This document shows, piece by piece, positions 18,541 to 62,631 of a stretch of 64,000 nucleotides of DNA. Under the pieces are notes generated by a model. It searched no databases, was not told the DNA's origin, and saw only the letters and a list, made by a program, of their open reading frames with translations. This DNA is from Nemertoderma westbladi. Lineage: Eukaryota; Animalia; Xenacoelomorpha. Location of the stretch: NCBI GenBank assembly GCA_032718475.1, contig JAUCBJ010008928.1, forward strand, positions 62,001 through 126,000. The letters are read 5' to 3'. Numbering within the stretch: position 1 is the stretch's first letter; each line of letters starts with the position of its first letter. The position numbers were made by a program, and so were the translations under genes.

Positions 18541-19968
18541 TGCGATTATTCGCAACATTCATTCCCCAAGTTTGTTCCTACAGTAATTGTGTTTGTTATA
18601 CATACCGCTATAGTTAAATTAACCCCGGTACTACACGGGCTGCTTGGCGTAGGTAAAGACTGGTGATTTTGTGCATCGGTCACTCCAGCAGATGCCGTGG
18701 TTCTTTTAGCTGTTCAAGTATATTTAACTACTGATTATATGTTGTACAAGTACTCGTACCTAATTTAGGGTTTAGTGTACAGTGCTTTCCGAAAGTAATT
18801 AGTGTAGGCATTACATTTGTGTTGTAAAGTGGTTGATAGGCACTTTCGATTAGCTCTATTAACTTCTAGGTAGGAACACTCCGTGATACATAACGTAGTA
18901 CCTATAGCGATACGGCTATAGGTCGTCAGGCGGTGGTATTTTCCTATCTGGACAACACAGTGTACTTACTACTACTTATTATTTTCAAATACCGTAGTAC
19001 CCTGTCCGTTGTAATTACCAGATTTCTAACCCTTTGTTAGGCTGGTTTGTAGACTTCTTGTAAAATTACCCTAAAAATTCGTATTTTGTGTTTTTTGTAA
19101 ATTTTTGTGTTTAGTTAGAGATTGTAATCTCAACCCGAATTGTACGTAATTTGTAGTATTAAGTAACTTAGGTAAATTAGAATCATTTGTTTTAGTGTCC
19201 TGTACGTAACACTTCACTGAAAGCGCACCGCTTTGTGTAGTGATTACTCCCCAGAAATAATAACATTTATTTCAACATTGACAAAACCCATTAAACGGGT
19301 ATATATATATTATAAATCAAATCTAACGATTTATAAATAGTAGGCCTGCCATACAACCATTAGGTCTCAATATCAGTTGGATTACTGCTCAAATAACGGT
19401 AATAAAGTAAGTAAGGTAACCAAGTAACCCTTGAAATTCAGAAATTCAGTTATTTAAAATAATTGATATATCGGTATTTACAATAGGCTTATTATATTTA
19501 TTTCTATAAATTTTAGGTTGAAATCATACCGGTATTCTGTAATTAATTCTAGTTTGTAATTATACTTATATATATACACTATAAGTGTAAACTGCATACC
19601 GGTATTTACGATAGGCCTATTATCTTTATTTCTATAAATTTAGGCTGAAATTATACCGGTACTTGTAATTAATTCTAGTCCAGAATTATATATACTACAA
19701 ACTGTAAGCTGTATACCGGTATTCCCGATAGGCCTATTATATATTTATATATATTTGTGCTAAAGTTATACCGGTATTCTGTGATAAACCTAGTCTGTAA
19801 TAATAGTTATATATACTATAAGCATACTGGTATTCTAATATATTATATATACCACGCTACACTGAGTAGTAGTACCGGTAATTAATTACTAGGCTAGCAG
19901 TTAATACTGAGTTACTAGACTTGCTCAGACTGTAATACAGCAGTAGACATTCAACTGTACACATAAGC

Positions 19969-42218: not shown

Positions 42219-45200
42219 ACTTCTTCAACGCACTATCCTATCTTTTGACCTACCCGGGAGACAGACCAAACCCTCGACTGGCTAGTATCCGTGCTAGTAC
42301 GACGGCAGGACCCCTGGTTCTGCTTCTGAGCAGGAACGACACAATGCGTAGAGAGAGCCCGGGCCGGTAGACTATGCAGCAACGTTGGCCGAAGCATTAA
42401 AGACACGATTTGAACTACCAGAAGTAAAACCTTTTTTAGTTCACGGGAGAATACCCCGAAGAATTTATCCAATTCAAACAACTATTTATGATGGAAGTGT
42501 ACAATAAAAACATCTCGGATCAACAAAAAATGAGATACCTATTAGTGTATACAGCATCAACCGCACACGAAGTAGCAAAGCAATACATGGGATTAACAAA
42601 CGGTTTGACATAAGCTTGGAAAGCATTAGAACGGAGGTTTGGAAATCCAGGTAAAATACTTCAAGCGACAGTGAATAAATTAGTCGAAAACGGGAAAATC
42701 GTAACAGTGCTGGAAATACGGACATTCACAGAGAGAGTTAATAAGGCATTAATCTCTCTAGATGAGTTAGGAATGCCACACGAATTAAACGCAACAAATA
42801 ACATGAGAGCATTAGTGGACTTACTACCACAGTACATAAGAAACTCATGGAGAAAGGAGGTGGCCAATATTAGATCGAGCAGAGGACGAGAACCACAACT
42901 CAGAGAATTAGGAGGATTTCTATAGGATCATATGGAAATAATCGACAATCCAGTTTATGGAGAAGAATTACTACCGAGTAATATTAAAGTAAATTAGGTC
43001 AAGAAGAAGGAGAAGGAGGAGAGTAAGGATAAGAAACAGGACTACAAGAAAATGTTCGACTCAGCAAGCGGGTCAGCCATACATAGCGTGTCGAGCGAAA
43101 GGTCACCAGCGAGACCATGGGAAAACGTAGTGAGATTCACGGAACCCGTAGAGAAAAACAATCGCAGTGCAAACGTCAGAGAAACACCAACAAGAGTGTG
43201 CAATCTACAAGCGAGATGTTATCTACACCCGAGGACAGACAGCCATAGTCTAAAGGATTGTATTATGTGGAAGGGATTCCTAGCCAGTGGACAGTGGGAA
43301 TACATTAGGTTAAACGGGTCATGTAGTTGGTGTTTAAAGCACGGACATATTTCGAAAAGTTGTCAAGAAAGAAGGACCAAGGTAGACGATAGAAGTCAGG
43401 ACTACTGGGGAAGGGAGACAAACCGCAGCAGGAGTGTGGAAGGCCAGAGGGGCCGGGCATGGAGTAACAACCGAGATTACAACCGCGACAAACGGGTCGT
43501 AACCAATATCGAGAACCACGAGGAAATGAGTATTATTATCGAAGCCAGTCAAGTAACGGGTATCGGGTACAATCACTGATAGGAAATAGGTGGGAACGGA
43601 AAGAACCTACCACGAAATTTGACCAATCAACAGAAACAAGTAATTTACTAGAAGGAAATCAACAGGAAACGATCACCAAGAGAGTCGGGACATATATGAC
43701 AATAACCAGGAAACGGGTCTATTTAAAAATAGTACCAGTACTGATTACGACAAATAAAAATAAACAGGGTGTCACAACCTACGCTTTATTGGACGAGGGA
43801 GCTTCGTCAACATTAATTTCAGAACGAGTAATCAATAAATTACGCGAGAAAGGGGAGGAATTTATTATGAAACTCGCCACAGTAGGCAATCGGATGGAAA
43901 ATATTCCATCCAGACTAGTAGACGTAAAGATATCAGCAGTAGAAGGAAGAGGCAATTTCAGTATATCGGCAGGGAAGATTGCAACCATGGACCATTTCGG
44001 AATTAGCAAATCCCAACCTACGGAATGGCAAACAAACCAATACGATCACCTAAAAGGTATTGATTTCAGTCATTATGAAGTAGATGTGCCAACGGTAAGC
44101 ATATTAATTGGAGTAGACAATCCAGCATGTTTTGAAACAATAGAGGAACGGAAAGGAGCATTCGACGGACCATGGGCTAAATTAACACCTTTTGGATGGG
44201 TAGTATATGGCCCTGTGGAGGGAGATGACGACGAATTAATATTATCAGACAATTCGGAAAGCGAAAGTAGTGACGATGAAAGTAGACATGACGGAATTAA
44301 TTATATGAGACCGAAAGAAGTTGATTTAGAAACCATTTATAGACAGGATTGTGAGGGATTATTCAACCCAACGATAGGAGAATCACAGGAGGATATTAGA
44401 GCAAGAAACTAGATGGACAAAACATTGGTTTTTCGAGATGGACATTTCGAGATAGGAATGTTATGGAAAGATAAGGAACAAACGCTCAGAAATAATAAAC
44501 AAATGGCATTAAAACGACTAGATAGATTGAAGTCGAAACTAGCGCGAAATGATAAGCAACATAAAGCAGAACAAGCGGCAATCGATAAATACATAGTGAA
44601 AGGATGGGCAGTAAAATTACTGCCAGGAATATTGGATACATTTAAGACTAATTATTTGCCATTGCATACTGTATGGGAACCACACAAAGACAGATATAGA
44701 GTTGTACAGGACGCTAGAGCAAAAAGCGGAGGGAAATGTCTTAACGACTATTTATTGGAAGGACCAAACTTATATAATACTGGACTGGATATATTATGGC
44801 ATTTTTGAGAAGGGAAATACGCATTTATATGTGATGTACAAGCAATGTTTCATCAAGTGTATGTGACGTCAGAAGACACAGATAGTTTATGCTTTCTGTG
44901 GTATGAGGGAAATCAAGACGGAAATAGTCAGCATAATATTGACATATATAAAATGTTAGTTCACATATTCGGAGCGAAGTCATCGCCATGTATTTGTACC
45001 CACTGCATGAGGGAATCTACCAAACTCACCAAACCAGATGGGAAACAATGGGATGATGAAGTCAAACAGATGATTAACCAACAGTTCTACGTAGATGACG
45101 GCACAGATGATTAACCAACGGTTCTACGTAGATGATGGTGTAGGAACACGTAACGCAATAAATCAATTAATTAAATTAGCCAAGGGAACCAGAGAATGTC

Positions 45201-45890
45201 TAGCGCAAGGAGGATTTACACTAACCAAATTTGTACCAAACTCACCGGAATTTATTAAAGCCATGGAAGTAAAGGCGGCCTCTATAGTGCCGAGTGCAAA
45301 GGCGGCCTCTATAGTGCTGAGTGCAAAGGCGGCCTCTATAGTGCCGAAGGTTGAGACAACCTACATGAAACCGGAAGTTCAGGAAACCAATAAAGTATCA
45401 GATTATAAGGCGACCTATATAGTGTAACACACAGAAAGTGCACCGATGTTAGAGAATATGGAAATAAATACATTAAATTCAACATCGCAACCAATTATGG
45501 AAACTGATAGTAATCAAGATTTCGATGAGTTAGAATTAACTGGAGAAATACCAATAAAGGAACCTCTAGTGTCAACAGATGGGACATCAGGTGGCACCAG
45601 AGTGTTAGGGATAGCATGGAATACGGAAACTGATAACTTGGAATATAAGTTCAGTATTGACTAAACGAAAGGACATAGTAAGAGGGCGTATGTATCAATA
45701 TTAGCAAAGATATATGACCCACCAGGATTAATATTGCCAATATTAATAATCGGCAAACAAATTCTGAAGGAAGTACACCTATTGAAAGTAGGTTGGAATG
45801 AATCCATACCAAAGGATATTCAGGTTAAATGGACAAAATGGATAGATAGTTTGCAACAAACAGAAAAGCTTGTTATACCGCGACCGACAT
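42219..45890 (+). pseudogene. BEL/Pao element D gag-pol, degenerate and truncated after RT
   Basis: Gag knuckle CSWCLKHGHISKSC, protease YALLDEGASST...PWAKLTPFGWVVYGP, RT YLPLH...RVVQDA...LNDYLLEGPNL...MFHQV...HIFGAKSSP...FYVDDG, and RVLGIAWN...IYDPPG...IPR. Many stops and frameshifts. Confidence 0.92.
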
Positions 45891-46115
45891 AATTTATTAT
45901 GATGATATAATTTATTAACATATTACGATGACTTATTGACATTATATAATGACATACCATGACATATTGACATACCGCAAAGCGTATGAGAATTGATTAA
46001 TTTAATTTGAAATTTGTGCGATATGAGAAAATATAAGCACTATAAAATAATTTAAAATAATGAAGAATGGGGATGAAATAGTATTACTTAAATGGGCGTG
46101 ACAGTAAGTCCCATA

Positions 46116-46654
46116 AGTAGTAGGGTCTTGGCCGGCTCTGTGACAGTTAGACCTAACTGACACCCATTGGGTGTCATATGACACCCAATTATCACCCTAT
46201 GGGTGTCATTGGGTGTCATTGGCGCCAGACTGTCTGGGTGACACCTCCCAATTAGGCTAATTAGACCCTAATTGACAGATGTCATCAATTAATTAGTACA
46301 ATTAAACCCTAACATGTGTCATATGACTCCTAATTAGGGTTTAATTGAATATCCTAATTAATCAGACTGATTAGCGCCCTGACACACAATGGGTCATCAG
46401 TGATGTCTAACTGTCACAGAGCCGGCTCAAGAGGGTGTCATAAGTGACACCGCAGCTCTTTTATTCATTAATACCTATTTATTTATATTTAATTTTAATT
46501 AATTATTTGTATTCTATTCTATTTTACTTTATTTATTCATTTGTACTTTATTTTAAATTAATTAACTGTATTAATTTTACTTTATACATTGATTTCTATT
46601 TTAGATTAATTAGTTTTTATATTACCAATGAGATCACTATGACATAATGTCTAT
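46116..46654 (+). repeat. left TIR
   Basis: Reverse complement of 61218-61751, with a few SNPs and a 5-bp indel. Confidence 0.97.
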
Positions 46655-47139
46655 ATTTAACTTTATAATGGCTATGGTATACGGCTCCCTACTGGCAACT
46701 ATCAACTACGTTCATCGGCGGGGGCCCCTCCTCTGCCGTCGCTTTTCATTAAGTAGATACAACAGGCAGTGAATCTATACGTATACCCCCCAGGCAAATA
46801 TAAATGAGCGATCCCGTCTGTTAGCAGTCCCTTCGATGACTCACTAATAATCCCATCGCGGCCTTGACTACAGCAAATCCGTATATCGCCCAAGGCTAAT
46901 GCTCAAGCGGCCCTCCATTGTTCCCACTATAGCCGGCGTCGCTTTGTCCCTTTCCTATATCCAGGCAGCCCGTATCATAACAATGAAGCGCCACTAATCA
47001 CGCATTCCTCTCTACTAATCCCTTTCCTTTGCACCAGACCTGCTTCTGTTATACAGCCAACTCAACATAATTAGTCAAGATGTCTACGGGGGTTTTCTAA
47101 TATAGAATCAACACGAGAAGTTGCCTTGGTAACCGCTTT

Positions 47140-47205
47140 TGCGCGAACAGCCAATCAGCGGGCTTCATTTCTGCTGCTGCGCTCTGATTGGCTCATTTAA
47201 GAGAC
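47140..47205 (+). promoter_or_regulatory. putative polB promoter (two CCAAT boxes)
   Basis: AGCCAATCAG at about 47150 and CTGATTGGC at about 47185. A downstream donor GTAAGT lies at about 47558 and an acceptor TTTTCTAG just before the polB ATG. Confidence 0.45.
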
Positions 47206-48270
47206 AAGGGCCTCCCCTACTAACCGAATTGCTATTTAATACATCCCCACTAATATATTACGTCATTAATTCAAATGCAAGTTACGATTAACATCATTTA
47301 CCATTATTTTGTTTTCGAATTTAATATTATTTATTTAAGAATATTTATTTATTATCATCAGTCAACAACCCACTTATATTATTGTCATTTCGCCTCGTTA
47401 TCGCTCATCGTCGACAACAAACTTTCCGCGTATCCGCCGCGTAATATTCTTCCAATACCATTCCGTTCTATCGGTTAATAAACTCTCTCGTCGTCCACGT
47501 CAACCAACTTCCTCGCGAACGTCCAAACTTCATCTTTCCGTGAATATTTACTAATACCGTAAGTAAAATCTGCCTTCCACCATCTCCATCGACGCCGCTA
47601 GCAAACAATTTACCTTTAATGTCTACCGGTACAACAGTATTGCAGTAGGCTCATTATTAATTACTGTCAGACTGCGGTGATACCGATAGCCTAAACCGTG
47701 ATCGAAGCATTCGATCAATAGGCCTACATCTACCTATCTGCTTGTCTACCCAACTACCGATACCGCTTCATTCGAGTTAGCCTAGGCCTAGGGCCATCGT
47801 AGTAGCGCTATAGACCCTACTGAACAACAATGAATACTGCAGTTTTCACTATATATCCTACTGACTAACTGAGTTCTCACACAGCGATTAGCTAAGCCTA
47901 TCGTTGATTTCTATTGGTTAACGCTACCGATACGTCTGACTTCTGGCAGACTTTTCACTAGCACTACTGCACTGACTGACTGCTGTTTATAGACCCTCTT
48001 TCCATGAATAATAACTGCCATCGCTATTGTGTCTTGGTTATCGCCACTATCTGACCGCTGGTACACTAACACTACCACACTAGTCACTACCGACGGTCTG
48101 CTTTATGTTTCACTGACTGATTGCTACAATATAGCAATAGGCCTAACTGTACAAACATAGTATTGTTGCCTAGTAACCAATTAATACCTACTGTTTTACT
48201 TTATTTTTAGCAAGTATACAGTATTTTTTATTTTTTTTACGAATAATCAACTTATTTTTCTAGATTCAAG

Positions 48271-51200
48271 ATGCCTATGTCTACCAATAAAGTTAGCTGC
48301 CCCATCTGCGACAAAGAGATGCGGAGTGATAATCTAAAATCCCACATTAAAATTCATTTCGCGCAATATAGATGCGACTGTTGCCCGACTTGGTCCTCGG
48401 AAAAGAAGACGCTGGTTGGCCATCTTGTTTCGTGTCCTCAGGGGGGAACAGGATTTAGTTACGTAAACGAGCCAGCCGATTGCCGCTGCGGGGATTCGCT
48501 CACCCTATCATCCTTTTCTGAGCATGAATGCTACACTCGACTTTTTTCGTGGAAACGCAAAACTCCGACTACCTCCCACTCATCCCCCATCAACTCTACT
48601 CCAGAACAAGTCGGCGGCGGCGGCTCCAATAATGAACCTTCAACTTCACGAGAATCTATTTCCCCAAACAATCCATTTCAACCACCCTCCAACGGAAGCG
48701 CACACGGACGACTGTTTACCTATAACAATGACCTCGCAGAAACAAGACTCGACGCTGAATTAACATTAAACGAAAATTTTCCACACATTCAAGAACACGT
48801 TAGTAGCCATTTACGTAGTGCCATGGGAACTTTTTTAAGAGTCTGGCTTACAATCAATATCGTAATGGAGCGTGAAACCAGCGAGGGATTTCAAATTGAA
48901 TCATTCTGTTTTAAATCTAGCGGTAACAATAATCAAATTCTGAATAATAGCGACTTTAATAACTGGTTTTCTAGCGCCGTCAATCGTATCGATCAACTGT
49001 TAAGCGTGTTTCTCTGCCTCGGCTCGGGTTGGCGCATAATAGCCATCGAGCGAATAACTATTGAGATTGCGCGTTCCCAACGCAACCCCTATTTAAAGGG
49101 TCAAGGCTTCAATAAATCTAAATTATTATTAAATAAAAAATGTACCGTAAGCGTAGACTGCCCGCTGGGGGAATGCTTTAAATACGCAGTATTGGCCGCC
49201 GCAAATTATAAGAAAATTGATAGAAAAAATAATAATATCAAAAGAATTTCAACGTATACTCCTTTCCTAAACATGTTTGATTTTTCCAATTTAAGTTTCC
49301 CGGTGGACAGAGTAACTGGTATTCCCCAGTTTCTGAAAGCCAACCCTATATACTGCATAAACCTTCTTTATTGGAGTAATACGGAAGAACTCTCCATTCT
49401 AAGTCAACCAGATAGCGCGCACTGTTCCGGTAAAACTGTACTAAACTTATTATTTATCGAAGCCACAAGCAAAAACCCCGCCCACTACGTAGCTATTACT
49501 AACATAGATAGATTAATAAATACTAAAGCTACTTCTACCGGCAACAAGACGCACTGCGAACGCTGTCTCAGAGCCTTTTACACTGACAAATCATTGGGAG
49601 AACATCGAGAGCGCTGCTATACGGGTAAACGCCAGCTCGAGTATATGCCCGAAAATCTCTTGGTTAAATTTGACAGGTACGATAAGACTCTATCCCCACC
49701 TTTCTGTATATACGCCGACATTGAAACTATTCTAGAACCTACAAACAATATTAAACTCCCACAGAAACATATAGCTAGCGCGGCAGCCTTTTATACAGTA
49801 CCAAATCAGAAATTAATTAACCCTCCTAAAACAGATGTTCAAATTTTCCGCGACGATGGCAGTAACCACGTAATGCGCGACTTTCTAACCGCTATGGAAA
49901 GTCATTGTAGGGAGTTATACGATTGGTCCATTTCTAGTACAAACACGCACGCCCCCATGCAACTCACTACTAGCCAACAAACTGACTTTAATAACGCTAC
50001 ACAATGCTACGTCTGCAACTGTAATTTAACCCCCGATTCTCATAATTTAAACCTCAATGACAATCTCAGCACCAAAGTCCGCGATCACGATCATTATAGC
50101 GGGGAGTATCGAGGGGCTGCTTGCGTCAGCTGCAACAGGAAACTTTCTCTAAAACGGAATAATTTTTATATTATATTTCATAACTTGAGGAAATTCGATA
50201 TGCATTTACTACTAAAAGAAGGAATGACCGATAGTTCTAGAACACACTGGAAAATGACTGTAATACCAAAAAACACCGAAACTTATATTCACCTTAAAGT
50301 TAGCTTTCCAATCGATCCGAGTACACCAACAACCAACGCTAAAGAAAGTATCTCCATTAATTTTCTAGATTCCTATCAATTTATGACTGCCAGCCTAGAT
50401 AATCTTAGTAGTTATCTCACTAAAAATAACAGTAACCTAGCAACAGCCATACCCCATACACTAGCTCAAATGACCCAACTCTATCCCATCATTAGCGATA
50501 TCACAATAAAGAACAAGGGCGTATTCCCATATTCCTACATTCAAAATATTTCAAACCTACACGAAACTACACTCCCCCCAATAGAAAGCTTCTATAATGA
50601 TCTCAAATTGGAACAATGTAGCGCAGAAAACTATCAGCGCGCGCTTACTACTTGGGATGAATTAAACTGCGCAACAATCTTCGACTATATGATTGGTTAT
50701 TTGGTCCTAGACGTTACCCTATTGGCTGATACTTTCGAGCAGTTCCGATCCCTCTGTCTTACTAATTATGGACTCGAGCCCGTAATGTACTTCACTGCCC
50801 CTGGATTAACTTACGACGCGGCGCTGAAATTCACGCAATCAGAAATTCAATTACTATCAGACGCTCCCATCTACTCGGACTTTGAAACAAATATTAGGGG
50901 TGGTCTAGTTTTCTTGAATACACATTCCGTAGACGCAAATATTCCCGATAAACCCGACTACGACTCCAGTCTCCCCGAGAAATATCTAATTCCCATCGAT
51001 GCGAATAACCTTTACGGCTGCGCCCTGAGCCAGAAACTTCCCTACGCTAATATTAAACTCGTAACTACGCCCATAGACCTAGCTACAGTAGACGCGAGTG
51101 GGGATACTGGTTATTATTGCATAGTTGATCTACATTACCCGAAAGAAATTCATGATTTGACCGCCGATCTGCCTCTAGGAGCGGAGAAGATGTCAGTCCC

Positions 51201-52326
51201 TAAATCCTTTCTTAGTGAATACATGGAAGATCTTTGGGAGCATTACAATCTCACCGATACGGCTACCTGTAGACCATACAACGATACCTGTACTAAGCTA
51301 CTACTACATCAGTTTAATAAGGTTGAATACGGTATCCATATTAAGCTACTTCAACTCTATTTGAAGCTCGGTCTTAAACTTACACAAGTACATAGGGTCT
51401 ACTCTTTCTCGCAAAAATATATTTTCAAGGACTACATTAGTTTTAATACGAATAAAAGACAGTCGGCAAATAACCCATTCGAGGTCCTATTTTATAAGTT
51501 GATGAACAATGCCTTGTATGGGAAATGCCTCCAAAAGGTTAGAGACCGCGTTTCTTTCAGGTTATGCAATAGCGACGAACAATGCGATTTGCTCTTAGCC
51601 AAGCCCAACCACGAATCGTTTGTTGTATTTACCCCCAACTTGATTGGGCATACTTTCACTAAAGAGGCTGTTTGCCTAAATCAGGGCGTGTTCATCGGTT
51701 GCACTATACTAGATCTATCTAAGCTACAGATGTACGACCTATTTTACAACAAACTGAAACCTCTAGAACAAAAACTGGATTGCCAGATTCGCTGTCTAGC
51801 CGGTGACACGGATTCTCTAATGCTAAGCGTAACTAATACACCACAGCTAACCTTTCTACGGGCAATGTTTGAGGGTGGTTTCCTAGATACTTCCAACTAC
51901 AGTACAACACATCCACTCTATACCATTAAACATAAAGCGGCTCTCGGCTTCGTAAAAGATGAGAGCTGCGGTTTGCAGTATAAACAGTGGGTTTTCCTTA
52001 AACCAAAGGTCTACAGTTTTCAATCCTACGATGCCCCAATCAAGAAAACCGCCAAAGGTGTATCTAGATCGGTTGTCGCTAAGCAACTAACACACGAGGA
52101 TTATGCAGACTGTTTTGAAAACGAGGCAATGCTCTTCCGCTATAACTCTACCTTCACTTCTAGAAAGCATCAAATTTTTACTGGTCATGTCTATAAGAAG
52201 GCACTAACGCTCTGGGATACGAAATCATATTGGAGTAGTAAATATAGCAGCAAACCATACGGACACTATAGCACTAAGCTTGTTAGACCGGCGAAACGAG
52301 TAGTAATCCCCCCTACTAGGATTTAA
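48271..52326 (+). CDS. polB: protein-primed family B DNA polymerase with N-terminal zinc finger and inserted endonuclease VII-like HNH domain
   Basis: Exo I YADIET, Exo II FHNLRKFD, Exo III YLVLDV; Pol motifs DANNLYG, KLMNNALYGK, GDTDS, KVY and AKGV; CYVC...VRDHDHYSGEYRGAACVSCN; C2H2 CPIC...HIKIH. The ORF is intact. Confidence 0.96.
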   Translation: MPMSTNKVSCPICDKEMRSDNLKSHIKIHFAQYRCDCCPTWSSEKKTLVGHLVSCPQGGTGFSYVNEPADCRCGDSLTLSSFSEHECYTRLFSWKRKTPTTSHSSPINSTPEQVGGGGSNNEPSTSRESISPNNPFQPPSNGSAHGRLFTYNNDLAETRLDAELTLNENFPHIQEHVSSHLRSAMGTFLRVWLTINIVMERETSEGFQIESFCFKSSGNNNQILNNSDFNNWFSSAVNRIDQLLSVFLCLGSGWRIIAIERITIEIARSQRNPYLKGQGFNKSKLLLNKKCTVSVDCPLGECFKYAVLAAANYKKIDRKNNNIKRISTYTPFLNMFDFSNLSFPVDRVTGIPQFLKANPIYCINLLYWSNTEELSILSQPDSAHCSGKTVLNLLFIEATSKNPAHYVAITNIDRLINTKATSTGNKTHCERCLRAFYTDKSLGEHRERCYTGKRQLEYMPENLLVKFDRYDKTLSPPFCIYADIETILEPTNNIKLPQKHIASAAAFYTVPNQKLINPPKTDVQIFRDDGSNHVMRDFLTAMESHCRELYDWSISSTNTHAPMQLTTSQQTDFNNATQCYVCNCNLTPDSHNLNLNDNLSTKVRDHDHYSGEYRGAACVSCNRKLSLKRNNFYIIFHNLRKFDMHLLLKEGMTDSSRTHWKMTVIPKNTETYIHLKVSFPIDPSTPTTNAKESISINFLDSYQFMTASLDNLSSYLTKNNSNLATAIPHTLAQMTQLYPIISDITIKNKGVFPYSYIQNISNLHETTLPPIESFYNDLKLEQCSAENYQRALTTWDELNCATIFDYMIGYLVLDVTLLADTFEQFRSLCLTNYGLEPVMYFTAPGLTYDAALKFTQSEIQLLSDAPIYSDFETNIRGGLVFLNTHSVDANIPDKPDYDSSLPEKYLIPIDANNLYGCALSQKLPYANIKLVTTPIDLATVDASGDTGYYCIVDLHYPKEIHDLTADLPLGAEKMSVPKSFLSEYMEDLWEHYNLTDTATCRPYNDTCTKLLLHQFNKVEYGIHIKLLQLYLKLGLKLTQVHRVYSFSQKYIFKDYISFNTNKRQSANNPFEVLFYKLMNNALYGKCLQKVRDRVSFRLCNSDEQCDLLLAKPNHESFVVFTPNLIGHTFTKEAVCLNQGVFIGCTILDLSKLQMYDLFYNKLKPLEQKLDCQIRCLAGDTDSLMLSVTNTPQLTFLRAMFEGGFLDTSNYSTTHPLYTIKHKAALGFVKDESCGLQYKQWVFLKPKVYSFQSYDAPIKKTAKGVSRSVVAKQLTHEDYADCFENEAMLFRYNSTFTSRKHQIFTGHVYKKALTLWDTKSYWSSKYSSKPYGHYSTKLVRPAKRVVIPPTRI

Positions 52327-52340
52327 TTTTATTTTTCTAG

Positions 52341-52856
52341 AATAAGAAATTGAACAACAAAATAGAAATAACCAATAAACAGTTTACCGGAAAAAACATT
52401 GCCAAATTTGAACTAGATAAAATTTCACAGCAAATTACAGGTCAAAGTTGCTTAAAACCAAACATGTTTATCTACAAAGGTGACGATTCAACTATAATGC
52501 TATTTCCCAGCGGCGCAGTAACAATTGTAGGCCTGTGCAATAATTTAGCTAGTGAATTGCTTTATTTAAAACAAACTATCGGGATGCAATTGCAAAATTT
52601 GAAACTTAATACCGAAACACGAACTATTATTTTTCCAAGCGTTAATTTTAAATTATTAATGAAAAAATGTGGACATCATACAATTAATAATAAAGCAATA
52701 TTTATTAGCTATACCCCCGAATTATTTTGCGCGATTAGAATATATATAGGACATGCATATTTCAGTGTATTTCATAGTAATAAAATCGTTTCCATGTGTC
52801 CAGCCGGTGAATTCCCCGAATCATTATCTATTTTACAAACTTTATTATTAAATTAG
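52341..52856 (+). CDS. divergent TATA-binding protein (TBP)-fold protein, probably a spliced exon
   Basis: Two TBP-like repeats: KIEITN...FELDKI...STIMLFPSGAVTIVG and LKLNTET...VNFKLL...SYTPELFCAI...FSVFHSNKIV. There is no ATG at the start, and a phase-0 acceptor TTTTTCTAG ends at 52340. Confidence 0.8.
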   Translation, partial: NKKLNNKIEITNKQFTGKNIAKFELDKISQQITGQSCLKPNMFIYKGDDSTIMLFPSGAVTIVGLCNNLASELLYLKQTIGMQLQNLKLNTETRTIIFPSVNFKLLMKKCGHHTINNKAIFISYTPELFCAIRIYIGHAYFSVFHSNKIVSMCPAGEFPESLSILQTLLLN

Positions 52857-52919
52857 TTTATTTACTATGGTATACATGAAAGTTTACTATATTATTTATT
52901 TTGTATTGGTTTTTATTTT

Positions 52920-53640
52920 TCCGTGAGTAGGATTTGAATCCGTGACCATCCGTGTTACCTACTTTTTATAATTGCATTAGTAGGACTCGAACCCTGGTTT
53001 AACTTATTTTGTGTCGGATTTATAATGGTCGCGAGTAGGGATTGAACCCGTGACCTTCTGTTTTTCCTAATTTATGTTTAGTTTAGTTATTCTAGTTATT
53101 CTATGTTTACTTTTTATATTTTCATGATTAGGATTCGAACCCTGGTTTAACTTATTTTATGTTGGATTTCTAATGGTCGCGAGTAGGGATTGAACCTATG
53201 ACCTCCTGTTTATTTTCCATAAAACGGGATACGAGTAGGGATTGAGCCCGTGACCTTCTGTTTTTCCTATTTTATGTTTAGTTTAGTTACTCTAGTTATT
53301 CTATGTTTACTTTTTATATTTTCATGATTAGGATTCGAACCCTGGTTTAACTTATTTTGTGTTGGATTTATAATGGTCGTGAGTAGGGATTGAACCCGTG
53401 ACCTTCTGTTTTTCCTAATTTATGTTTAGTTTAGTTACTCTAGTTATTCTATGTTTACTTTTTATATTTTCATGATTAGGATTCGAACTCTGGTTTAACT
53501 TATTTTGTGTTGGATTTATAATGGTCGCGAGTAGGGATTGAACCTATGACCTCCTGTTTATTTTCCATAAAACGGGATACGAGTAGGGATTGAGCCCGTG
53601 ACCTTCTGTTTTTCCTATTTTGTGTTTAGTTTAGTTACTC
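52920..53640 (-). repeat. tandem array (148/200-bp units) of Pol III B-box / tRNA 3'-half-like motifs
   Basis: Repeated minus-strand GGTCACGGGTTCAATCCCTACTCGCGACCA and CAGGGTTCGAATCCT. More copies lie at 54165-54440. Confidence 0.8.
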
Positions 53641-53649
53641 TATGTTAAA

Positions 53650-55217
53650 GTGAATTTTCACCTTATATTTATGTTAAATTATAAATTTATGTTACAATTA
53701 TTATTTATATTATAAAAACAGAATTATTCGAGTTATATTGCATTATATATTTTACATTGAAGTGGAATACTTTAGATGCTGGGGGGGGGGGGGGGGGGGA
53801 ATCTGGTTTGCGAGGGATATTTGAATGGTGAGTATAACTATCCTTGAGAGCTAGTGCAACGCTATCTCACCATGGATGGGCTTTACCACTGTACTCGCAT
53901 CTGCTCTCTCATTGGCTGCTCGATGCCTCCGATTAAGGGTCTAAGACCTTCAAGCTGGTCATTTGCTTAGTTCTCTAATTGGAGGGATGTGAGTTTGCAC
54001 GCTAGAAGAGCTTTATTCTTTTTCCTAGCTCTTGGTTAACTCTAGTACACTCTAGTTTTGACTCTCCCGGCTATAGTGATAGTATGCAACCTTGGGAGTT
54101 AATGTGAGAATATATTTCAATGTATTTCATAGTAATAAAATCGTTTCCATGTGTCCTGCCGGTCCCTGGTTTAACTTATTTTGTGTTGGTTTTATAATGG
54201 TCGCGAGTAGGGCTTGAACCCGTGACCATCTGTTTATCCTTTTTTGTGTTTAGTTTAGTCTAGTTATTCTATGTTTACTTTTTATATTTTCATGTCTAGG
54301 ATTTGAACCCCGGTTTAACTTATTTTGTGTTGGTTTTATAATGGTCGCGAGTAGGGATTGAACCTATGACCTCCTGTTTATTTTCCATAAAATGGGATAC
54401 GAGTAGGGATTGAGCCTGTGAGCATATGTTTTTCCTATTTTACCTCTTCTTCTCCATCTTTCTCACTCAAATTTTCCTCATTTTCTAGGGGTAACTGTTT
54501 TTGTATCCCTTTCAAAATATTCACAACTTTATGAAATTTATTTTCCATTGGCTGTTTTATATTTAATATATCACGCTCATCTCTCTTTTTCTTTTCATCT
54601 TCACTAAAAATATCTTCGGATTTTTTAAATTTTTTGGTAACGGAGCCATTAGTTTTTCCTTTCTATATGTTTCCATATGACGAGATAAATTGTCTTGTCT
54701 CATTTCTTTATTACAAACCAAACAACTTTCATGTCTATGCATTATATAGCAATGTCATTTGATAATATTGAATTTTCACATCATATTTATGTTAAATTAT
54801 AAATTTATGCTACAATTATTATTTATATTATAAAAACAGAAATATTCGAGTTATATTGCATTATATATTTTACATTGAAGTGGAATACTTTAGATGCTGG
54901 GGGGGGAATCTGGTTTGCGAGGGATATTTGAATGGTGAGTATAACTATCCTTGAGAGCTAGTGCAACGCTATCTCACTATGGATGGGCTTTACCACTGTA
55001 CTCGCATCTGCTCTCTCATTGGCTGCTCGATGCCTCCGATTAAGGGTCTAAGACCTTCAAGCTGATTATTTGCTTAGTTCTCTAATTGGAGGGATATGAG
55101 TTTGCACGCTAGAAGAGCTTTATTCTTTTTCCTAGCTCTTGGTTAACTCTAGCATACACTCTAGCTTTGACTCCCCCGGCTATAGTTATAGTATGCAACC
55201 TTGGGAGTTAATGTGAG
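53650..55217. repeat. internal duplication within the Maverick
   Basis: 53650-54107 is repeated at about 54768-55217. 54110-54163 copies the TBP-like gene end (52757-52808), followed by array units. Confidence 0.9.
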
Positions 55218-55417
55218 TAAAGGCCAAGAGATTAGACTTCAGGCTCCCTCTATTGGTTCATTCTTCTTAACTTTATAAAATAACTCAACCCGTATTTAAA
55301 GTTTTAAAAATTATGACTTAGTCGACTAATTTTCCAAAGTATATTATAAAAACATATAATTTCTTGAATAGATAGACCTAATAGTAATAAATAATGTGGG
55401 GGTAAATACATTTATAA

Positions 55418-56305
55418 TTAAGGTAACTGTAGCTCGAGACTGGGGCAATCAAGTGTTCTAACTAAGGTTCTATAGCAACTCCGATAGGCAATGATCGATA
55501 ATGGTGGGGTCCCTGAGAGTAGATAGAGTGTATTATTCTCCAAATAGTTCCCAGGAAGTAAGAGGCTACGTTGCACCTTGCGGTGGTAGGCGTCGAGTTT
55601 GTCGATATCCTTTCGGCGTAGGGATCCAATAGTCAGAGTTAATCTGTAGATTATGACAGGGACGGCGAGTGTGTTCCACATCTTAAAGATGGTCTCTAGG
55701 TTGAGCCACCTTGCTGTCCATCCTTTGGTATGGAAAACTTGCGACATCATGGCTATTGTCTGGATAACATTGTGGAGGTTGCTAGCGGGGTTAGAATTTC
55801 CCAGTTTGTGTCCGAGGAATTTCAGATGGTTCGACATTTGGATTAGTGATCCGTTGACTGTAATGAAACATTCCTTGTGGGTCATATAGTTACGGTTTAG
55901 GATCGTCCATTTTGTTTTCTTCATGTCGATTTGGAGGGATACCAGAGCGGCTTCCCGTATGAGTATTTCGCACATCTTCTCGACGGATTTAAGCGAGGTT
56001 CCCAGGAGTAGGTAATCATCAGCATAGGCCACTGTACCAAGCCAGGATGTGTCAATTCGGCATCCGAGGTTACTATGTTCTATTCTGCTTAAGATGTTGG
56101 AGGTGTAAAGATTGTAGAGGATAGGTGAGATGAGTGATCCCTGTTTCAATCCCCGCGAGACTTTTATTGGAGTTGGGTCGACTAGATCGCCGAATTTGAG
56201 GAAGATTTTGCTCGATCCAAAGTAAGCTAAGATAAGGCAAATACTGTAAGGAGTAACTGTAAGGGACAACTGCGCTCCCAATCTCGCTCGCCGGCCGGTC
56301 CTCAT
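55418..56305 (-). CDS. partial non-LTR-type reverse transcriptase (from motif 4 onward plus thumb)
   Basis: RGLKQGSLISPILYNLY, AYADD, LQIDMKKTK, LKFLG and PVIIY. It has no motif-3 Asp (D..KAFD) and no endonuclease. Confidence 0.85.
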   Translation of the reverse strand: MRTGRRARLGAQLSLTVTPYSICLILAYFGSSKIFLKFGDLVDPTPIKVSRGLKQGSLISPILYNLYTSNILSRIEHSNLGCRIDTSWLGTVAYADDYLLLGTSLKSVEKMCEILIREAALVSLQIDMKKTKWTILNRNYMTHKECFITVNGSLIQMSNHLKFLGHKLGNSNPASNLHNVIQTIAMMSQVFHTKGWTARWLNLETIFKMWNTLAVPVIIYRLTLTIGSLRRKDIDKLDAYHRKVQRSLLLPGNYLENNTLYLLSGTPPLSIIAYRSCYRTLVRTLDCPSLELQLP

Positions 56306-56507
56306 GCAAATTTAGCCTATGAGAAAATAAATAATTTATTTTATAATTAAATAATAATTTATTATTTAAGTAATTGCTTTATAGCCATCTTGGTAATTCT
56401 TATAACGTTAAAATTATTGTAATTACTCAAATTAATTTCTATTCAAACTGCATATTGCTTTAACCTATTTTATTATATCATATTATATAAAGGAATGTTA
56501 GTATTAA

Positions 56508-56933
56508 TTAAAACTTACACCATGGTTCCTCCCTAAAATCCTCTGTTTCCTCCCAGTTTTCCTGGGGAAAAGGGTAAAGGAAACGTTGTTCCTCAGCCGC
56601 TGCTATCTCTTTCAGAACATATTCCTGGTACAAATACTGATCGTACCAGTTGGAGGAGGTCCGAAGCCCTTCCACTCGCGCTTCCTCCAATGCTCGAATC
56701 TCGAGCTCTCGATTAACCAAATCCTCCTCCCACGCCATCTCCTCTTCCTGATCCCTCATATAACGGCCATAGGGAGTGACCGCTTCCGACCTGCTCTCCA
56801 TGGTCTGTGTACCGACGCTTCTGGTCATGGTTGTGTTGATAGCGTTGGAAGCAGTGGTGATGGATGTAGCTGTGGTGGTGATGGAGACCGATGCCACGGG
56901 GGCAGCTAGCTGGGTGCTGGAGGTGGAATCCAT
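56508..56933 (-). CDS. small Thr/Ser-rich, acidic orphan protein (about 141 aa), possibly exon 1 of a spliced gene
   Basis: Kozak ACCATGG at 56933, an upstream TATA-Inr, and a GTAAGT donor at 56518-56513 just before the stop. Confidence 0.6.
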   Translation of the reverse strand: MDSTSSTQLAAPVASVSITTTATSITTASNAINTTMTRSVGTQTMESRSEAVTPYGRYMRDQEEEMAWEEDLVNRELEIRALEEARVEGLRTSSNWYDQYLYQEYVLKEIAAAEEQRFLYPFPQENWEETEDFREEPWCKF

Positions 56934-57025
56934 GGTATTGATTAATTGGTAAATTAACAAGTTTAAAATTGTAAACGCAAAAGTTTAAAATGTAGAATAA
57001 ATCACATAAAATTTTTCGAGCTCAA

Positions 57026-57062
57026 AACTGATGACGAATGAAGGCCCAACTCGGTTTATATA
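57026..57062 (-). promoter_or_regulatory. TATA-Inr core promoter
   Basis: Minus strand TATATAAA (57062-57055) and TCAGTT with its A at 57029, about 31 nt downstream. Confidence 0.65.
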
Positions 57063-59150
57063 GCATCAGCGCAGAGGGAGCAACGCAACAGTTTCAACGA
57101 GCGGCGGCTTTAATTAAAGGGCTCCCCAGTGATAAGTCGTTAGGAGCCAGTAGTAATTATATATCGGTAATAACTATGGGATATAGCATATGAATGTTAG
57201 CCTTATTTGGGCCCTCAAGCTTATTAGCAATAGAGATATCTCGCTTGCCGGCCGGCCCTCATGCAGATTTAGCGGCGCCAAGGCTAACGGGGCACCTCAA
57301 AGACAGTCTGGCTATAGTAGAGTAGAATGGATATACGAGTCCATAGCTAAAATACATCTGCCATGGAGCCTTCGCGTAGCACTATGCTCACCAATTATAT
57401 TTATAATTCTCTATCCGCGAAATTTTCAGGAATTTTAAATTTTGGCCGTCGCTTCGCGGAAAAAATAAAAAGTAAACATAAAATAGGATATACAGATTGT
57501 CATAGATTCGATTCCCTATCTCGACCAGGGTCATTATGACCCTCCCCCCCGATATTTATACAACATTTTATAGCCCGGTAGTATTGGGGTTATTATGTGA
57601 CTCATGAAAATAAATCTTAAATACAATACAAATGCTCCATCTGGGTAAAAGTGGATGCAATGTATTTACAAATCGAGTGTGGATCAGGATAGTTTTCGTT
57701 AAGGTTTCACCTTGGTGAAGTGGAAGCATTGTATTCACATTTCGAGTACCATTTTTATTGAAACTATGGGGCATTTTATATTAGCCGATTTTTCAAAATT
57801 TGTAAAGTTTTGAGGGTTTTTATGAAAAATATAGGGATTTAGGGATTATCATTCAAATTGACTACGAAGAAGGCAATAGGGATCATTAATGGTGTGCTGA
57901 GGATATACAGATTGTCATAGATTCGTTTCCCTACCTCGACCAGGGTCATTATGACCCTCCCCCCCCCGATATTTATACAACATTTTATAGCCCGGTAGTA
58001 TTATGATTAAAGCTACTAAACTAAAACATAACAAAGTGCAATTATCCTATCTGTTCCAACTCGGTGTCACTAGTTTAGATAATATACTATAATAATAGTG
58101 ATAGCAGATGCTTTTAATTTCGCGATGAAATAATGTCAGCAAACGAAATATAGTGAATACATCATAGATAGAATTTTAAATTTTGCAGTCGCATGGAGTG
58201 ATAACCCTTAGGTGAAAGCTAAATTTGCTCTACTTTAATCAAATGGGGCATTAAAGCTACGAGTATATTTTCCTCTACATCCTCCCTCGATCTTACACAA
58301 ATCTGGGTAAAAGGCAGTTGAAGGGCTATCATTCCCAACTTATGCGGTCCTCCCTTTAATGTTTCATTGTTCTATTCATAGTCGCCTTTAAGAATTTCTC
58401 GGGAAAATAAGGATGAGGGGCTATCACTTTCAACCCCATGCGGCCCTCCCTTTCATGATTTCATTGAACTATCCATAGTACGAACAATCAAACCAAAGCC
58501 TTTGAATATCCTCGCGGCTTATCAGCGGCGCCATGGCTAACGGCTTAATATTAACAGTGAAGCATCTAAAAGACAGAGTGTCTATGATAGGGCAGAACAG
58601 CATACTTACAGCCTAGAGGTGGTCCCCACTGAAAACTTTGCTCGCCATCAATACATACAAAGCATCGCTTGATGGTTAGAGTAATAGGGTGGATATTTTC
58701 ATTTTGGTGAATATAATTTATAGCATTAATCACGAAAATCGCTAAATAATATATTTTAATTAAAATCAGCTCTGATAAACAACTTGCATATCGAGTTTGT
58801 AAAGAATTCATAGGGATTGGCTGTTTATTTAGGGGTTAACATTCAAATTGATTACGAAGAAGCAGTAGGGGTCATTAATGGTATGCTGAGACTCACTTAC
58901 TTCATGGCTCGCTCTCATAGAATAGATTAACTAGTAGAGAAAAATGAAAAATAAGTGGTTAAACATCTTATATTTTTTAAACAATATGGGGAAACAAGAA
59001 TAAATAATTTACCGACAACATCAATATTAAATAATATAACAACAACGGATAAATAATTTACCATCAACATTAATAATAAATAATATAAGAACATCAACAA
59101 TAACAAAAGATATAGTCAGAACAGTTTTTAATAAATAGAGACTGTTTATA

Positions 59151-60860
59151 TTAATAGGGTTGCTGGCCTCCGAGAATAACTGGTTTAACCCTTTTAGGGT
59201 CCGATACTATTAATGGTTGCGATAATTTTCTCTTTAATAGATTGTTGAGATAGCCTTTTCTTGGGGGGTGAAATAGATTAAGGTGTGTTTGCTGCGGGAG
59301 AAATATGCCTTCTCTGAGAGAACGTTTTAGTAATTCGAAAAGGCGCGCGATGGTAAAGTCGTTGGATAGGGTGATAGTGTTGGTATTTTTCGTATTGGTG
59401 AATATAATTTCTGTTGGTTTGTTCTCGATATGAATGTAAGGACTGAGATAGTAGTGAGAGTTGGGTGGGTTGGTTATATTTATCGTGAGAAAATCGCTGC
59501 CCCTAATATTGAGACCGTTGGTGAACTGAAAAGTGGTATTCTCTTCGTCTTTCATTAAAATGGGCCAGATACCGACATATTTTTCGGATTTGAACTTATA
59601 GATAAAGGCTGCGATACTGCTATTTATGAGATAGCGCTGGTGATTGGGGATCGTAATCTGCTTCGGTTTGAAAGCAAATTGTATAGCCATAGCCTTGAAT
59701 CTGATTAGAGCCTCGCGCGCTTGAATCGTGTTAGCTATAGTAAAGGATTCGTTAAATTTTCTCTCGGTTATCTGTAAATCAATTTCTGAATCACTGATAC
59801 AACTTTGTATCGATATTCGCTCGGAAATGTTGTCTTTGTATACGTTAAGTTCATCGTAGCAGACACATTCACTATCCTCGATGGTTGAATCGAACCATTT
59901 CAATTCGCCGACCTCGGTTGGTGTAAGAAGAATCATGCCCCTAGAAGAAACAATAGCCTTTCCATCGTCAACCTCGTAGCCATTGGTGATCGCTAAATTG
60001 CGCTCGTTCCGAATATTTGTAACAAACCCAAAAGTGCAATAGTCAAAAGCAACCCAATTGCCCGGTTTTAGGACAAGGTGAGTAGTAGGATTAATAAAAG
60101 GGCGACAGATGTTTACATATTGTTGAAATAAATTGGCGCAGGCGACGGAAAATGTGATCCATGAACTGTTTACCGTGTCTTCCAGCTTTATTAACTCGAG
60201 TGGTTTCACTGGGTTAATACTTCCATAGGTGCCAACTCTATAATTGAATCCAAAGTAATAGGAGACTTTATCGGCGAAAAAGCATGTGAGCTCATTCAAT
60301 TTCTCGCCGAAAGCGAGAACATCCTTATCGAAAAGTTTAAAGAAACGAGTCTCCTCTTCCTCGGTCGGAGTCGACGAGTTCCAGATGAGAAGAAGAATCG
60401 AGTTTGCGATACTATGAAAATCAAATAAGCGATCATCGGAGAAGAAGGAGGTTACGAGAGTGGTTAAACCCAGTAGACGATTTGCCACATCTTGGTTGAT
60501 GTTTTCTCGAATAAAATCGACTATACTAGTTGGAATCGTAAACGTCTCGGGCGAAGTAGTTAGATTGAACGTTATTTTGTTGTCCCTTTTTAAAAGTTTG
60601 AAACCGTGGTTGGAGGAATGAAGTTTATTATCGTCGAGGGTTTGATATTGTCCATCGTGAAGTTCGTAGCAGGCACGGAAAATAAAGTGCGCGTAGTTTG
60701 CCGGAATCGGGATGGGTTGGTTTAAGGTTGTATTTATCGTTAACGGGAAGAGTTTGTTCGCCGAATCGAAATATAGACCAAACGAGTTGTCTTGTAGCAT
60801 AAACTGATTTTCGTTGCAAACCAGATCGTTGCTTGAATAGCTGATTTCTGAATGTGCCAT
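59151..60860 (-). CDS. 569-aa Maverick cargo protein, possibly with divergent PC4/Sub1-like repeats
   Basis: Intact ORF. LAITNGYEVDDGKAIVSSRGMILLTPTEVGEL and YVGIWPILMKDEENTTFQFTNGLNI resemble the PC4 pattern VDIREYY..DG...P.KKGISLT. Basic C-terminal NLS-like patches (KRK, PKRVK). The ORF is solid but the fold call is tentative. Confidence 0.6.
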   Translation of the reverse strand: MAHSEISYSSNDLVCNENQFMLQDNSFGLYFDSANKLFPLTINTTLNQPIPIPANYAHFIFRACYELHDGQYQTLDDNKLHSSNHGFKLLKRDNKITFNLTTSPETFTIPTSIVDFIRENINQDVANRLLGLTTLVTSFFSDDRLFDFHSIANSILLLIWNSSTPTEEEETRFFKLFDKDVLAFGEKLNELTCFFADKVSYYFGFNYRVGTYGSINPVKPLELIKLEDTVNSSWITFSVACANLFQQYVNICRPFINPTTHLVLKPGNWVAFDYCTFGFVTNIRNERNLAITNGYEVDDGKAIVSSRGMILLTPTEVGELKWFDSTIEDSECVCYDELNVYKDNISERISIQSCISDSEIDLQITERKFNESFTIANTIQAREALIRFKAMAIQFAFKPKQITIPNHQRYLINSSIAAFIYKFKSEKYVGIWPILMKDEENTTFQFTNGLNIRGSDFLTINITNPPNSHYYLSPYIHIENKPTEIIFTNTKNTNTITLSNDFTIARLFELLKRSLREGIFLPQQTHLNLFHPPRKGYLNNLLKRKLSQPLIVSDPKRVKPVILGGQQPY

Positions 60861-60974
60861 TGTGATTGTGTACCGGTAACTCGTTTAGGAAATAAAAATA
60901 AATAAATACTTTTACGAAAATAATTAAAACTTTTCAGGAAAACAAAGAGACAATGATTGGGAATGTGGTGAACG

Positions 60975-61085
60975 GGGGCTATTATAGAGGGGGCTAGAAT
61001 GGGTTAGCCAATCGGGGAACAGGAGGGAGAAAAGACTGTATAATTAAACCAATCAGAGAGCAGCTTTGATGACGTCACATCAGGC
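60975..61085 (-). promoter_or_regulatory. putative promoter of the 569-aa gene
   Basis: CRE palindrome TGACGTCA (about 61070), two CCAATC boxes (about 61008 and 61049) and minus-strand TATAATA (about 60980-60986). Confidence 0.5.
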
Positions 61086-61217
61086 GAGATAATGATTGCC
61101 CAATGTTATTCAATGGTAGGCAGAGTGGCGCCATTGAATAACGAAGACAAAGGGGCCGCCGCGAGAGGAAAGATTATAAAGTTAACCATAAGGGATCTAT
61201 AAACCATAGAGCTAAAA

Positions 61218-61751
61218 ATAGACATTATGTCATAGTGATCTCATTGGTAATATAAAACTAATTAATCTAAAAATAGAAATCAATGTATAAAATAAAAGTA
61301 ATACAATTAATTAATTTAAAATAAAGTACAAATGAATAAATAAAGTAAAATAGAATACAATTAATTAATTAAAATTAAATATAAATAAATAGGTATTAAT
61401 GAATAAAAGAGCTGCGGTGTCACTTATGACACCCTCTTGAGCCGGCTCTGTGACAGTTAGACATCACTGATGACCCATTGTGTGTCAGGGCGCTAATCAG
61501 TCTGATTAATTAGGATAATCAATTAAACCCTAATTAGGAGTCATATGACACCTGTTAGGGTTTAATTGTACTAATTAATTGATGACATCTGTCAATTAGG
61601 GTCTAATTAGCCTAATTGGGAGGTGTCACCCAGACATTCTGGCGCCAATGACACCCAATGACACCCATAGGGTGATAATTGGGTGTCATATGACACCCAA
61701 TGGGTGTCAGTTAGGTCTAACTGTCACAGAGCCGGCCAAGACCCTACTACT
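61218..61751 (-). repeat. right TIR
   Basis: Reverse complement of 46116-46654. Confidence 0.97.
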
Positions 61752-62631
61752 CCCATAGTATTATAAAATATTGTTTGAAAGGAAACTGAAAGTAAAGGGG
61801 GTACAACGGATTAGCTACCCGCCCTGATACGATTAGTTAGTCCAGAGCAACGCTATAGAAAGCAGTGACAAGATGCTTGCGATTTTTGGACAAAGAATTA
61901 GCGGTTATTTACAGCTGCATGAATTTAGTAGCTAGTTAGAGCTACGTGAATCAAATAACTTTCGTTGATTGATATTTGTTAATGAAAAATTAACGGACGT
62001 TGAACCTATGTGAGTTCGACAAGTTGGATTAAATAAGATGAAATAGTTTGATGCATGGATATAATTAACCAGGCAATTGTTTGTGTGGAAATTAATTTGT
62101 GTTTGAGTCGATGGAAATTCATTTCTGGAAAATATTTGCGGATATAGGACAAAAACTAAATAACACATTGACTATTTGGCGACTAGAGTTTACAATGTGT
62201 AAACAGCTGACAAATTGAATAAAGGGATTGAACATGACATAGAAATTGGATGGACCGGATGACTGTTTGTAAATACAGCTGGTGTATCTGTAACAATAAG
62301 TTAACGGCTTATTGCTATAGCAATGCCTAAATAATAGAATGATACAGAAACACAATGACTAACAGATGAATAGTATGACTCAATAAATTTGAGAGGACGG
62401 AATATAACTTGTAACCAAGGACATATAATATATTGAATTATCTGGAATATTACTTGATTAGAATAAACTTTATTGTTTATATTTAGGCCCTAGGATAGAT
62501 TATTATTTAGCTATATTATATTATATTAGGAATTAACTTGCATTATTTATTATATTTACAGCGCGACCCTATTTAGTGGTCAGATTTGCAAGTGACTTAT
62601 TGAGCCATTATAGTGGCATTATTGGATCACA

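Follow-up and report, generated by a model that had tools for sequence, protein, structure and literature searches.

How Polintons/Mavericks express their genes, and how they balance the terminal protein, which is consumed in every replication round, against the polymerase, is an open question. Bearing on it is one locus in the 64-kb stretch of Nemertoderma westbladi DNA analysed here (hereafter ‘the window’, meaning the whole stretch): within a Polinton derivative, directly behind an intact polB gene, lies a TBP-like ORF that has no start codon at its beginning. That a TBP-like gene resides within a Polinton derivative is, in our judgement, virtually certain. Here, we ask from which start such a gene could be translated.

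The element (Table 1) has the long TIRs, 6-bp TSD and pfam03175 pPolB of Polintons/Mavericks of the Alpha adintovirus type, as these are described in the accessible parts of PMC11071308 and PMC8502044. It differs from autonomous Polintons and adintoviruses in having no detectable integrase, capsid, protease or ATPase. Profiles built from related loci found no integrase, capsid, penton, protease or packaging ATPase among the element's ORF pieces: the integrase profile (41 loci) matched none of 337 pieces, and the best E-values of the capsid, protease and ATPase profiles within the element were 0.26–0.62. A very divergent capsid protein may hide in the 569-aa orphan ORF, for which no match was found in Pfam, PHROGs, PDB, the ESM Atlas or the related loci. 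Judged from its sequence, the element derives from a Polinton/Maverick and would depend on integrase, capsid, protease and ATPase supplied in trans.

Several further features of the element and its surroundings were observed. Each TIR (46131–46426; 61441–61736) contains an internal 30-nt inverted repeat, its arms 236 nt apart, together with short GTGTCA-rich palindromes, so each end of the element could fold as a long hairpin. Next to the reverse-transcriptase fragment lies a duplication of ~460 nt (95%; 53651–54108 and 54769–55217) with G-runs, and a 52-nt second copy (96%) of the TBP 3′ end is found at 54112–54163. Outside the Polinton, the window consists mostly of gag/protease/RT/integrase-like retrotransposon pieces (986–4678, 9277–11237, 19936–24186 and 42600–45900), which we take to be BEL/Pao-like; the Polinton begins just past the last of these.

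Table 1. Positions of the element, its genes and its predicted expression signals in the window.
Feature	Position	Strand	Remarks
6-bp TSD, left	46110–46115		CCCATA
Polinton/Maverick-derived element	46116–61751		15,636 bp; AGTAGT ends
Left TIR	46116–46666	+	551 nt; differs from right TIR by 10 substitutions and 3 indel events
Predicted Pol II core promoter	47332–47363	+	TATTTAA at 47332, initiator-like TCAGTC at 47358; putative start site
Predicted leader exon	47359–47558	+	200 nt, ATG-less; putative extent, ending at donor TACC/GTAAGT (47559)
Acceptor 1	48252–48264	+	TTATTTTTCTAG/A; 7 nt before polB ATG
Intact pPolB	48271–52326	+	1351 aa; Zn fingers, terminal-protein domain, vOTU, EndoVII-like, exonuclease, polymerase (palm) motifs
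Internal donor	49143–49151	+	TACC/GTAAG; cut before 49147, between codons 292 and 293, phase 0
Acceptor 2	52329–52341	+	TTATTTTTCTAG/A; phase 0 for TBP frame
Divergent two-repeat TBP-fold ORF	52341–52856	+	171 aa plus stop; first Met at codon 42; saddle complete from about residue 7
Tandem tRNA-T-arm/B-box-like motifs	52930–54440	−	14 motifs, no A-boxes; directly behind TBP; also 57485–57530 (+)
Reverse-transcriptase fragment	55418–56311	−	secondary insertion
Orphan ORF	56508–56936	−	142 aa, acidic, GC-rich; behind textbook TATATAAA and TCAGTT promoter
Orphan ORF	59151–60860	−	569 aa, intact; behind CCAAT boxes, TGACGTCA and TATA-like box
Right TIR	61206–61751	−	
6-bp TSD, right	61752–61757		CCCATA

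The original prediction placed a TBP-like ORF with both saddle repeats 14 nt behind the polB stop codon (52324–52326), and each of these points is borne out, with the quoted motifs at residues 54–64 (LFPSGAVTIVG), 124–129 (YTPELF) and 143–150 (VFHSNKIV). A frame of this length stayed open in 0 of 20,000 base shuffles and is thus not there by chance; it contains no internal stop or frameshift. Searches with the single ORF sequence yielded no matches and its single-sequence fold was uninformative (pLDDT 33), but a profile of three rows gathered 236 proteins, and of the at least 120 among the matches listed nearly all are annotated as PF00352. A query-free profile of 122 homologues, which had themselves been gathered using a profile containing the query, gave the ORF 55.8 bits, whereas 500 shuffles and the reversed sequence did not exceed 7.4. 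With a 99-row alignment, AlphaFold modelled the ORF at pLDDT 93.1, and Foldseek against the PDB returned TBPs only through rank 44 among the matches listed (TM 0.64–0.78, identity 16–20%). All 30 of 30 ESM Atlas matches were TBPs (best 0.96), at a recognition value of 1802, below the tool's mark of 2300. The comparison to PF00352 proposed in the original prediction hence had a divided outcome: the saddle fold was matched, but the HMM score (18.7 bits, E 0.0016) stays under the gathering cut-off of 22.9, which the TBPs of two related loci, L040 and L041, clear with 46 and 49. Being driven by the alignment, the model argues for the TBP family fold, not for the function of this copy.

Individual residues were compared with yeast TBP, whose intercalating Phe residues, stirrup and TFIIA/Brf1 helix we presume to have the roles usually ascribed to them. 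Three of the four intercalating Phe residues are kept (Phe55, Phe129 and Phe144, corresponding to yeast F116, F190 and F207), but the first position is Pro, as it is in 90% of 98 homologues. Within the TATA-reading Asn/Thr set, Asn12 is kept and the second Asn has become Thr, with Thr91, Val63 and Met152 at the partner positions (the register is uncertain by one residue at 90–93 and 151–153). The TFIIB and Brf1 surfaces, also singled out beforehand, are degraded: in the YTPELF stirrup, the second acid is kept and the first is replaced by Thr, and helix 69–80, the basic convex helix elsewhere, has one Lys. In a FastTree phylogeny (95 of the 99 rows), the ORF falls among short mobile-type TBPs with weak support (0.31–0.84) and has the longest branch of the tree (2.22). 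It shares with cellular TBP (PF00352; yeast 1TBP, Arabidopsis 1QNE) the two-repeat saddle, the first Asn and three of the four Phe, and differs from it in having neither the N-terminal tail nor the basic convex helix and in scoring below the Pfam cut-off. Nucleocytoviricota TBP, ASFV B263R-like proteins and the herpesvirus UL87/U58 group are likewise divergent viral TBP folds, and viral TBP folds match our model at TM 0.4–0.7. The TBP-like factors of large DNA viruses serve big viral transcription systems and late genes, whereas the element described here lacks both an RNA polymerase gene and any remaining late genes.

The original prediction was also right that the ORF lacks a start ATG: the earliest one in any frame past 52341 is at 52464. 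Of 89 TBP homologues, 70 have a Met among the 11 residues that precede the first conserved Asn (the homologue starts being gene-caller predictions, with two rows hand-trimmed to Met), so the TBP exon amounts to a whole gene minus its ATG alone. Read-through or frameshifting from polB is ruled out by stops in the TBP frame, which lie at 52317 and 52338. The ORF does open exactly at an acceptor, as had been stated, but to some extent it does so by definition: the in-frame stop from which the ORF is counted is the TAG of that very acceptor. Five acceptor-like sites were scored between 52320 and 52981, and only that at 52341 opens a long frame (171 aa; the others, 0–15). The similar acceptor that had been noticed before the polB ATG proved to be the same word: the 13-mer TTATTTTTCTAGA has exactly two copies on both strands of the 64 kb, at 48252 and 52329, and a word this long was held in common with the polB upstream region by 3 of 4009 AT-rich 40-mers. 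We consider it probable that TBP is expressed through the acceptor at 52341. An ATTAAA lies at the TBP stop with U-rich DNA after it, and polB and TBP likely share this 3′ end. A second acceptor-like site is present at 48211, 60 nt before the polB ATG.

What had been envisaged was a leader common to polB and TBP, spliced to alternative 3′ sites. One transcription unit with two matching acceptors survives from this proposal at the level of sequence, but the leader as the source of the start does not: having no ATG, the predicted leader cannot supply one. (TATTTAA and TCAGTC are here presumed to be Pol II promoter motifs.) A shared coding leader was likewise ruled out, since splicing a phase-0 exon to the polB acceptor gives 8 codons and then a stop. 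More likely, the TBP frame would obtain its start from the polB ATG, via a donor inside polB. Acceptor and donor signals that could belong to an adenovirus-like spliced unit are present in the element. As a general Polinton trait, acceptors before polB were rejected (3 of 41, as against 4 of 168 other ORFs, the former count omitting polB ORFs too close to a contig end and five that lack an early Met). Two related polB ORFs (L032:1305–5033 and L110:1328–4804) have no early Met and open beside acceptor-like sequence, which suggests that polB may have spliced 5′ ends in other Polintons.

The internal donor is the only GTRAG on the sense strand of the polB coding sequence; synonymous shuffles of polB contain 3.9 on average, and one or none with P = 0.074. 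It has the 9-mer TACCGTAAG in common with the leader donor, with no other copy on either strand of the 64 kb, and this 9-mer arose in 1.45% of 2000 synonymous shuffles. On a 9-position consensus count, the internal donor reaches 6; five sites, including two in phase 0, reach 7. It falls between GSGW at residue 251, in a terminal-protein domain placed by motif and position rather than by fold, and the catalytic Cys302 of the vOTU (His405 being its other landmark), that is, at the boundary between terminal protein and vOTU given in the accessible part of PMC11071308, whose domain order (terminal protein, vOTU and so on) pPolB follows. Joined to 52341, it yields an open terminal-protein–TBP frame of 463 aa. 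Since a GTRAG inside an ORF is limited to phase 0 or 1, the phase match with the TBP acceptor had roughly an even chance.

Whether alternative splicing makes TBP as a protein fused in frame to polB's terminal-protein part seems to us, on these signals, evenly poised. What counts against the fusion is that the donor and acceptor coincidences were spotted after the fact; further points against it are the long branch of this polB, the completeness of the TBP but for its ATG, and an AATAAA 33 nt inside the TBP exon. An apparent joint 49228–52339 in run X1 shrank, on the narrow stretch, to a match of 37 nt that contains 7 differences and lies between unrelated flanks, a chance AT-rich match. The same run (kind uncertain, contigs only, share 0.07) does not reach the TBP frame and so speaks neither way on it; it shows three listed polB differences (one contig, depth 2.4), all at third positions.

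The AG of the internal donor derives from Ser294, at a column that is Asn in 158 of 158 homologues. This is one of two deviations of the window polB among 63 fully invariant columns, the other being a Tyr/Phe change; among columns conserved to at least 97%, it deviates at 13 of 121. The gene groups, on a long branch, with the clade containing L040 and L041. Named homologues are from animals.

A search of 111 polB loci (nine of them weak and probably unrelated, one a duplicate, and many on contigs that end shortly after polB) found TBP in two, L040 and L041, where the gene lies three genes past polB; the L040 Polinton encodes integrase, ATPase and pX-like genes. When viral and prokaryote collections were scanned for the context of TBP, the yield was at most a single giant-virus-like contig. 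The TBP ATG is preceded by an acceptor at a distance of 11 nt in L040 and 17 nt in L041 (background at that strength: 46 of 2292 internal Met). In both, polB has a GTGAGT 19 nt beyond the position of the window's donor (chance 2.8% per 90 nt); GTRAG occurs in the same 90-nt stretch in 2 of the other 57 rows. The corresponding join of donor and TBP is open for 180 aa in L040 and for one residue, then a stop, in L041, so the fusion is not conserved in L041. Because the two loci come from one assembly, have polB genes 63% identical and contain 5 and 11 GTRAG words in polB, they lend the fusion weak and non-independent support. In both (L040:7499–8399 and L041:4818–5739), the 3′ half of the ORF upstream is overlapped by TBP, which is read in a different frame.

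Those two loci also speak for the alternative that survives best, in that both show an acceptor, a short spacer and then an ATG. Under this alternative, which we regard as rather unlikely, the leader would be spliced straight to acceptor 2 and TBP would be made alone and in small amounts, initiated at a near-cognate codon (one of codons 4–10) or, truncated, at Met42. The identity of the two acceptor words and the lack of an ATG in the leader fit it, as do near-cognate codons with a purine at −3 in codons 4–10, where homologues begin. It leaves the internal donor and Ser294 unexplained, however, and a start at Met42 would delete the first strand and the helix of repeat 1 in the AlphaFold model; the element's other three ORFs begin with ATG. 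Direct splicing from the leader and the fusion can coexist.

It is unlikely, in our estimate, that the TBP start was instead lost in this copy or lineage after deletion of the capsid and packaging genes, leaving a dead or decaying gene. No structural genes are left in the element, and its interior is cluttered with duplications and the reverse-transcriptase fragment. The TBP ORF has other residues at near-invariant positions 125, 147 and 153 (the last two, in repeat 2, being near-invariant glycines), a GC3 of 0.26 as against 0.43 for polB, and the long branch mentioned above, all of which would suit decay. Against this, the TIRs are only 10 substitutions apart in ~545 nt, and polB remained open in just 16% of 500 simulations at 1% decay; with TIRs so close and polB intact, the chance that one given codon has been altered since insertion is ~3% or less by an arithmetic estimate. 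The undisturbed TBP frame argues in the same direction, and its departures at 4 of 19 aligned near-invariant positions lie inside the range of its subclade, which reaches 6. Very unlikely is unspliced expression of TBP from a promoter of its own in the polB 3′ end, the shared word being a promoter or termination motif: a TATAAA-type word (51979) and a CCAAT (52036) do occur there, but the former is 360 nt upstream and has no initiator match, the shared word is built like an acceptor, with pyrimidine tract and YAG, and has two matching donors to pair with, and the start-codon problem would stay.

If the fusion is indeed made, we envisage the following course of events. One promoter near 47332–47360 would give a long transcript, from which splicing of the non-coding leader to acceptor 1 would yield full pPolB. 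If 49147 were then spliced to 52341 as well, the protease and polymerase domains would be skipped, and the product, begun at the polB ATG, would consist of 292 polB codons (zinc fingers and terminal-protein domain) and TBP. From such a message, the element would gain additional priming protein but no polymerase. The fusion could be cut by the vOTU of full-length pPolB and a TBP domain with a short tail thereby freed, cleavage between terminal protein and vOTU having been proposed in the accessible part of PMC11071308; left uncut, the fusion could let TBP tether the primer to the AT-rich DNA of the element. The TBP domain would be a factor private to the element, binding AT-rich DNA and bending it with a changed specificity, and would not take the place of host TBP in TFIID or TFIIIB.

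A different role had been suggested earlier, namely that the product could redirect host TBP, or compete with it, on TATA and B-box promoters of the element. TBP reaches B-box promoters via TFIIIC and Brf1. The B-box-like motifs behind the TBP gene resemble a tRNA 3′ half, several ending in CGACCA, but none of 21 matches has an A-box within 90 nt, and ARAGORN and Rfam called no tRNA and no Rfam family. With the partner surfaces degraded as well, competition on B-box promoters is not borne out. The array may instead comprise TFIIIC-binding or insulator-like sites, or possibly tRNA-derived repeats. Nor do the element's promoters share a private box: its three TATA-like boxes differ mutually and look host-like. 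We infer that the ORF product is a private DNA-binding and DNA-bending factor, made together with extra terminal protein.

In adenovirus E2B, pTP and the polymerase are made from alternatively spliced messages of one promoter; the terminal protein is encoded by a separate gene, and no TBP is known to be encoded. One promoter and alternative splicing that yields terminal protein apart from polymerase would be common to both systems, as predicted here, but in our element the terminal protein forms the N-terminal part of pPolB, and its predicted fusion partner is TBP. A TBP-labelled gene has been indicated for MELD viruses, which have an adintovirus-like PolB (Starrett et al. 2021, PMC8502044, Fig. 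5 legend); there, too, a TBP-like gene sits in a pPolB-encoding midsize linear dsDNA element. By contrast, TBP in our element adjoins polB, has no ATG and accompanies no virion genes. In the accessible main text of PMC8502044, that legend is the one occurrence of TBP, and ‘splic’ occurs 0 times. In the accessible part of PMC11071308, where the terminal protein is separated by proteolysis or gene split, ‘splic’ and ‘TBP’ both occur 0 times, and TBP goes unmentioned in the accessible part of a 2026 insect polinton preprint (10.1101/2025.02.07.637071). We found no description of a spliced TBP or terminal-protein fusion in Polintons in the literature searched, which was largely open-access and, for the adintovirus papers, comprised the text. 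The presence of TBP in such elements is already indicated by the label in the accessible part of PMC8502044, whereas the splice-fusion reading was not found before.

Still more broadly, and only tentatively, TBP-bearing Polintons may use a donor at the boundary of terminal protein and vOTU to make a polymerase-free priming protein, coupled to a captured TBP. The fusion would have become obligatory in this lineage, and TBP would have outlasted the virion genes because its task had become replication, in which it would lead the protein primer to AT-rich terminal DNA, and was no longer late transcription. The fusion reading predicts one exact RNA junction; if it is wrong, the locus holds one more divergent Polinton TBP. 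If it is true, Polintons would have, besides the proteolysis and gene split of PMC11071308 (in its accessible part), a third way to obtain a separate terminal protein, namely splicing at its boundary with the vOTU. This would possibly be a step toward the adenovirus arrangement, and it would account for the survival of TBP in a capsid-less element.
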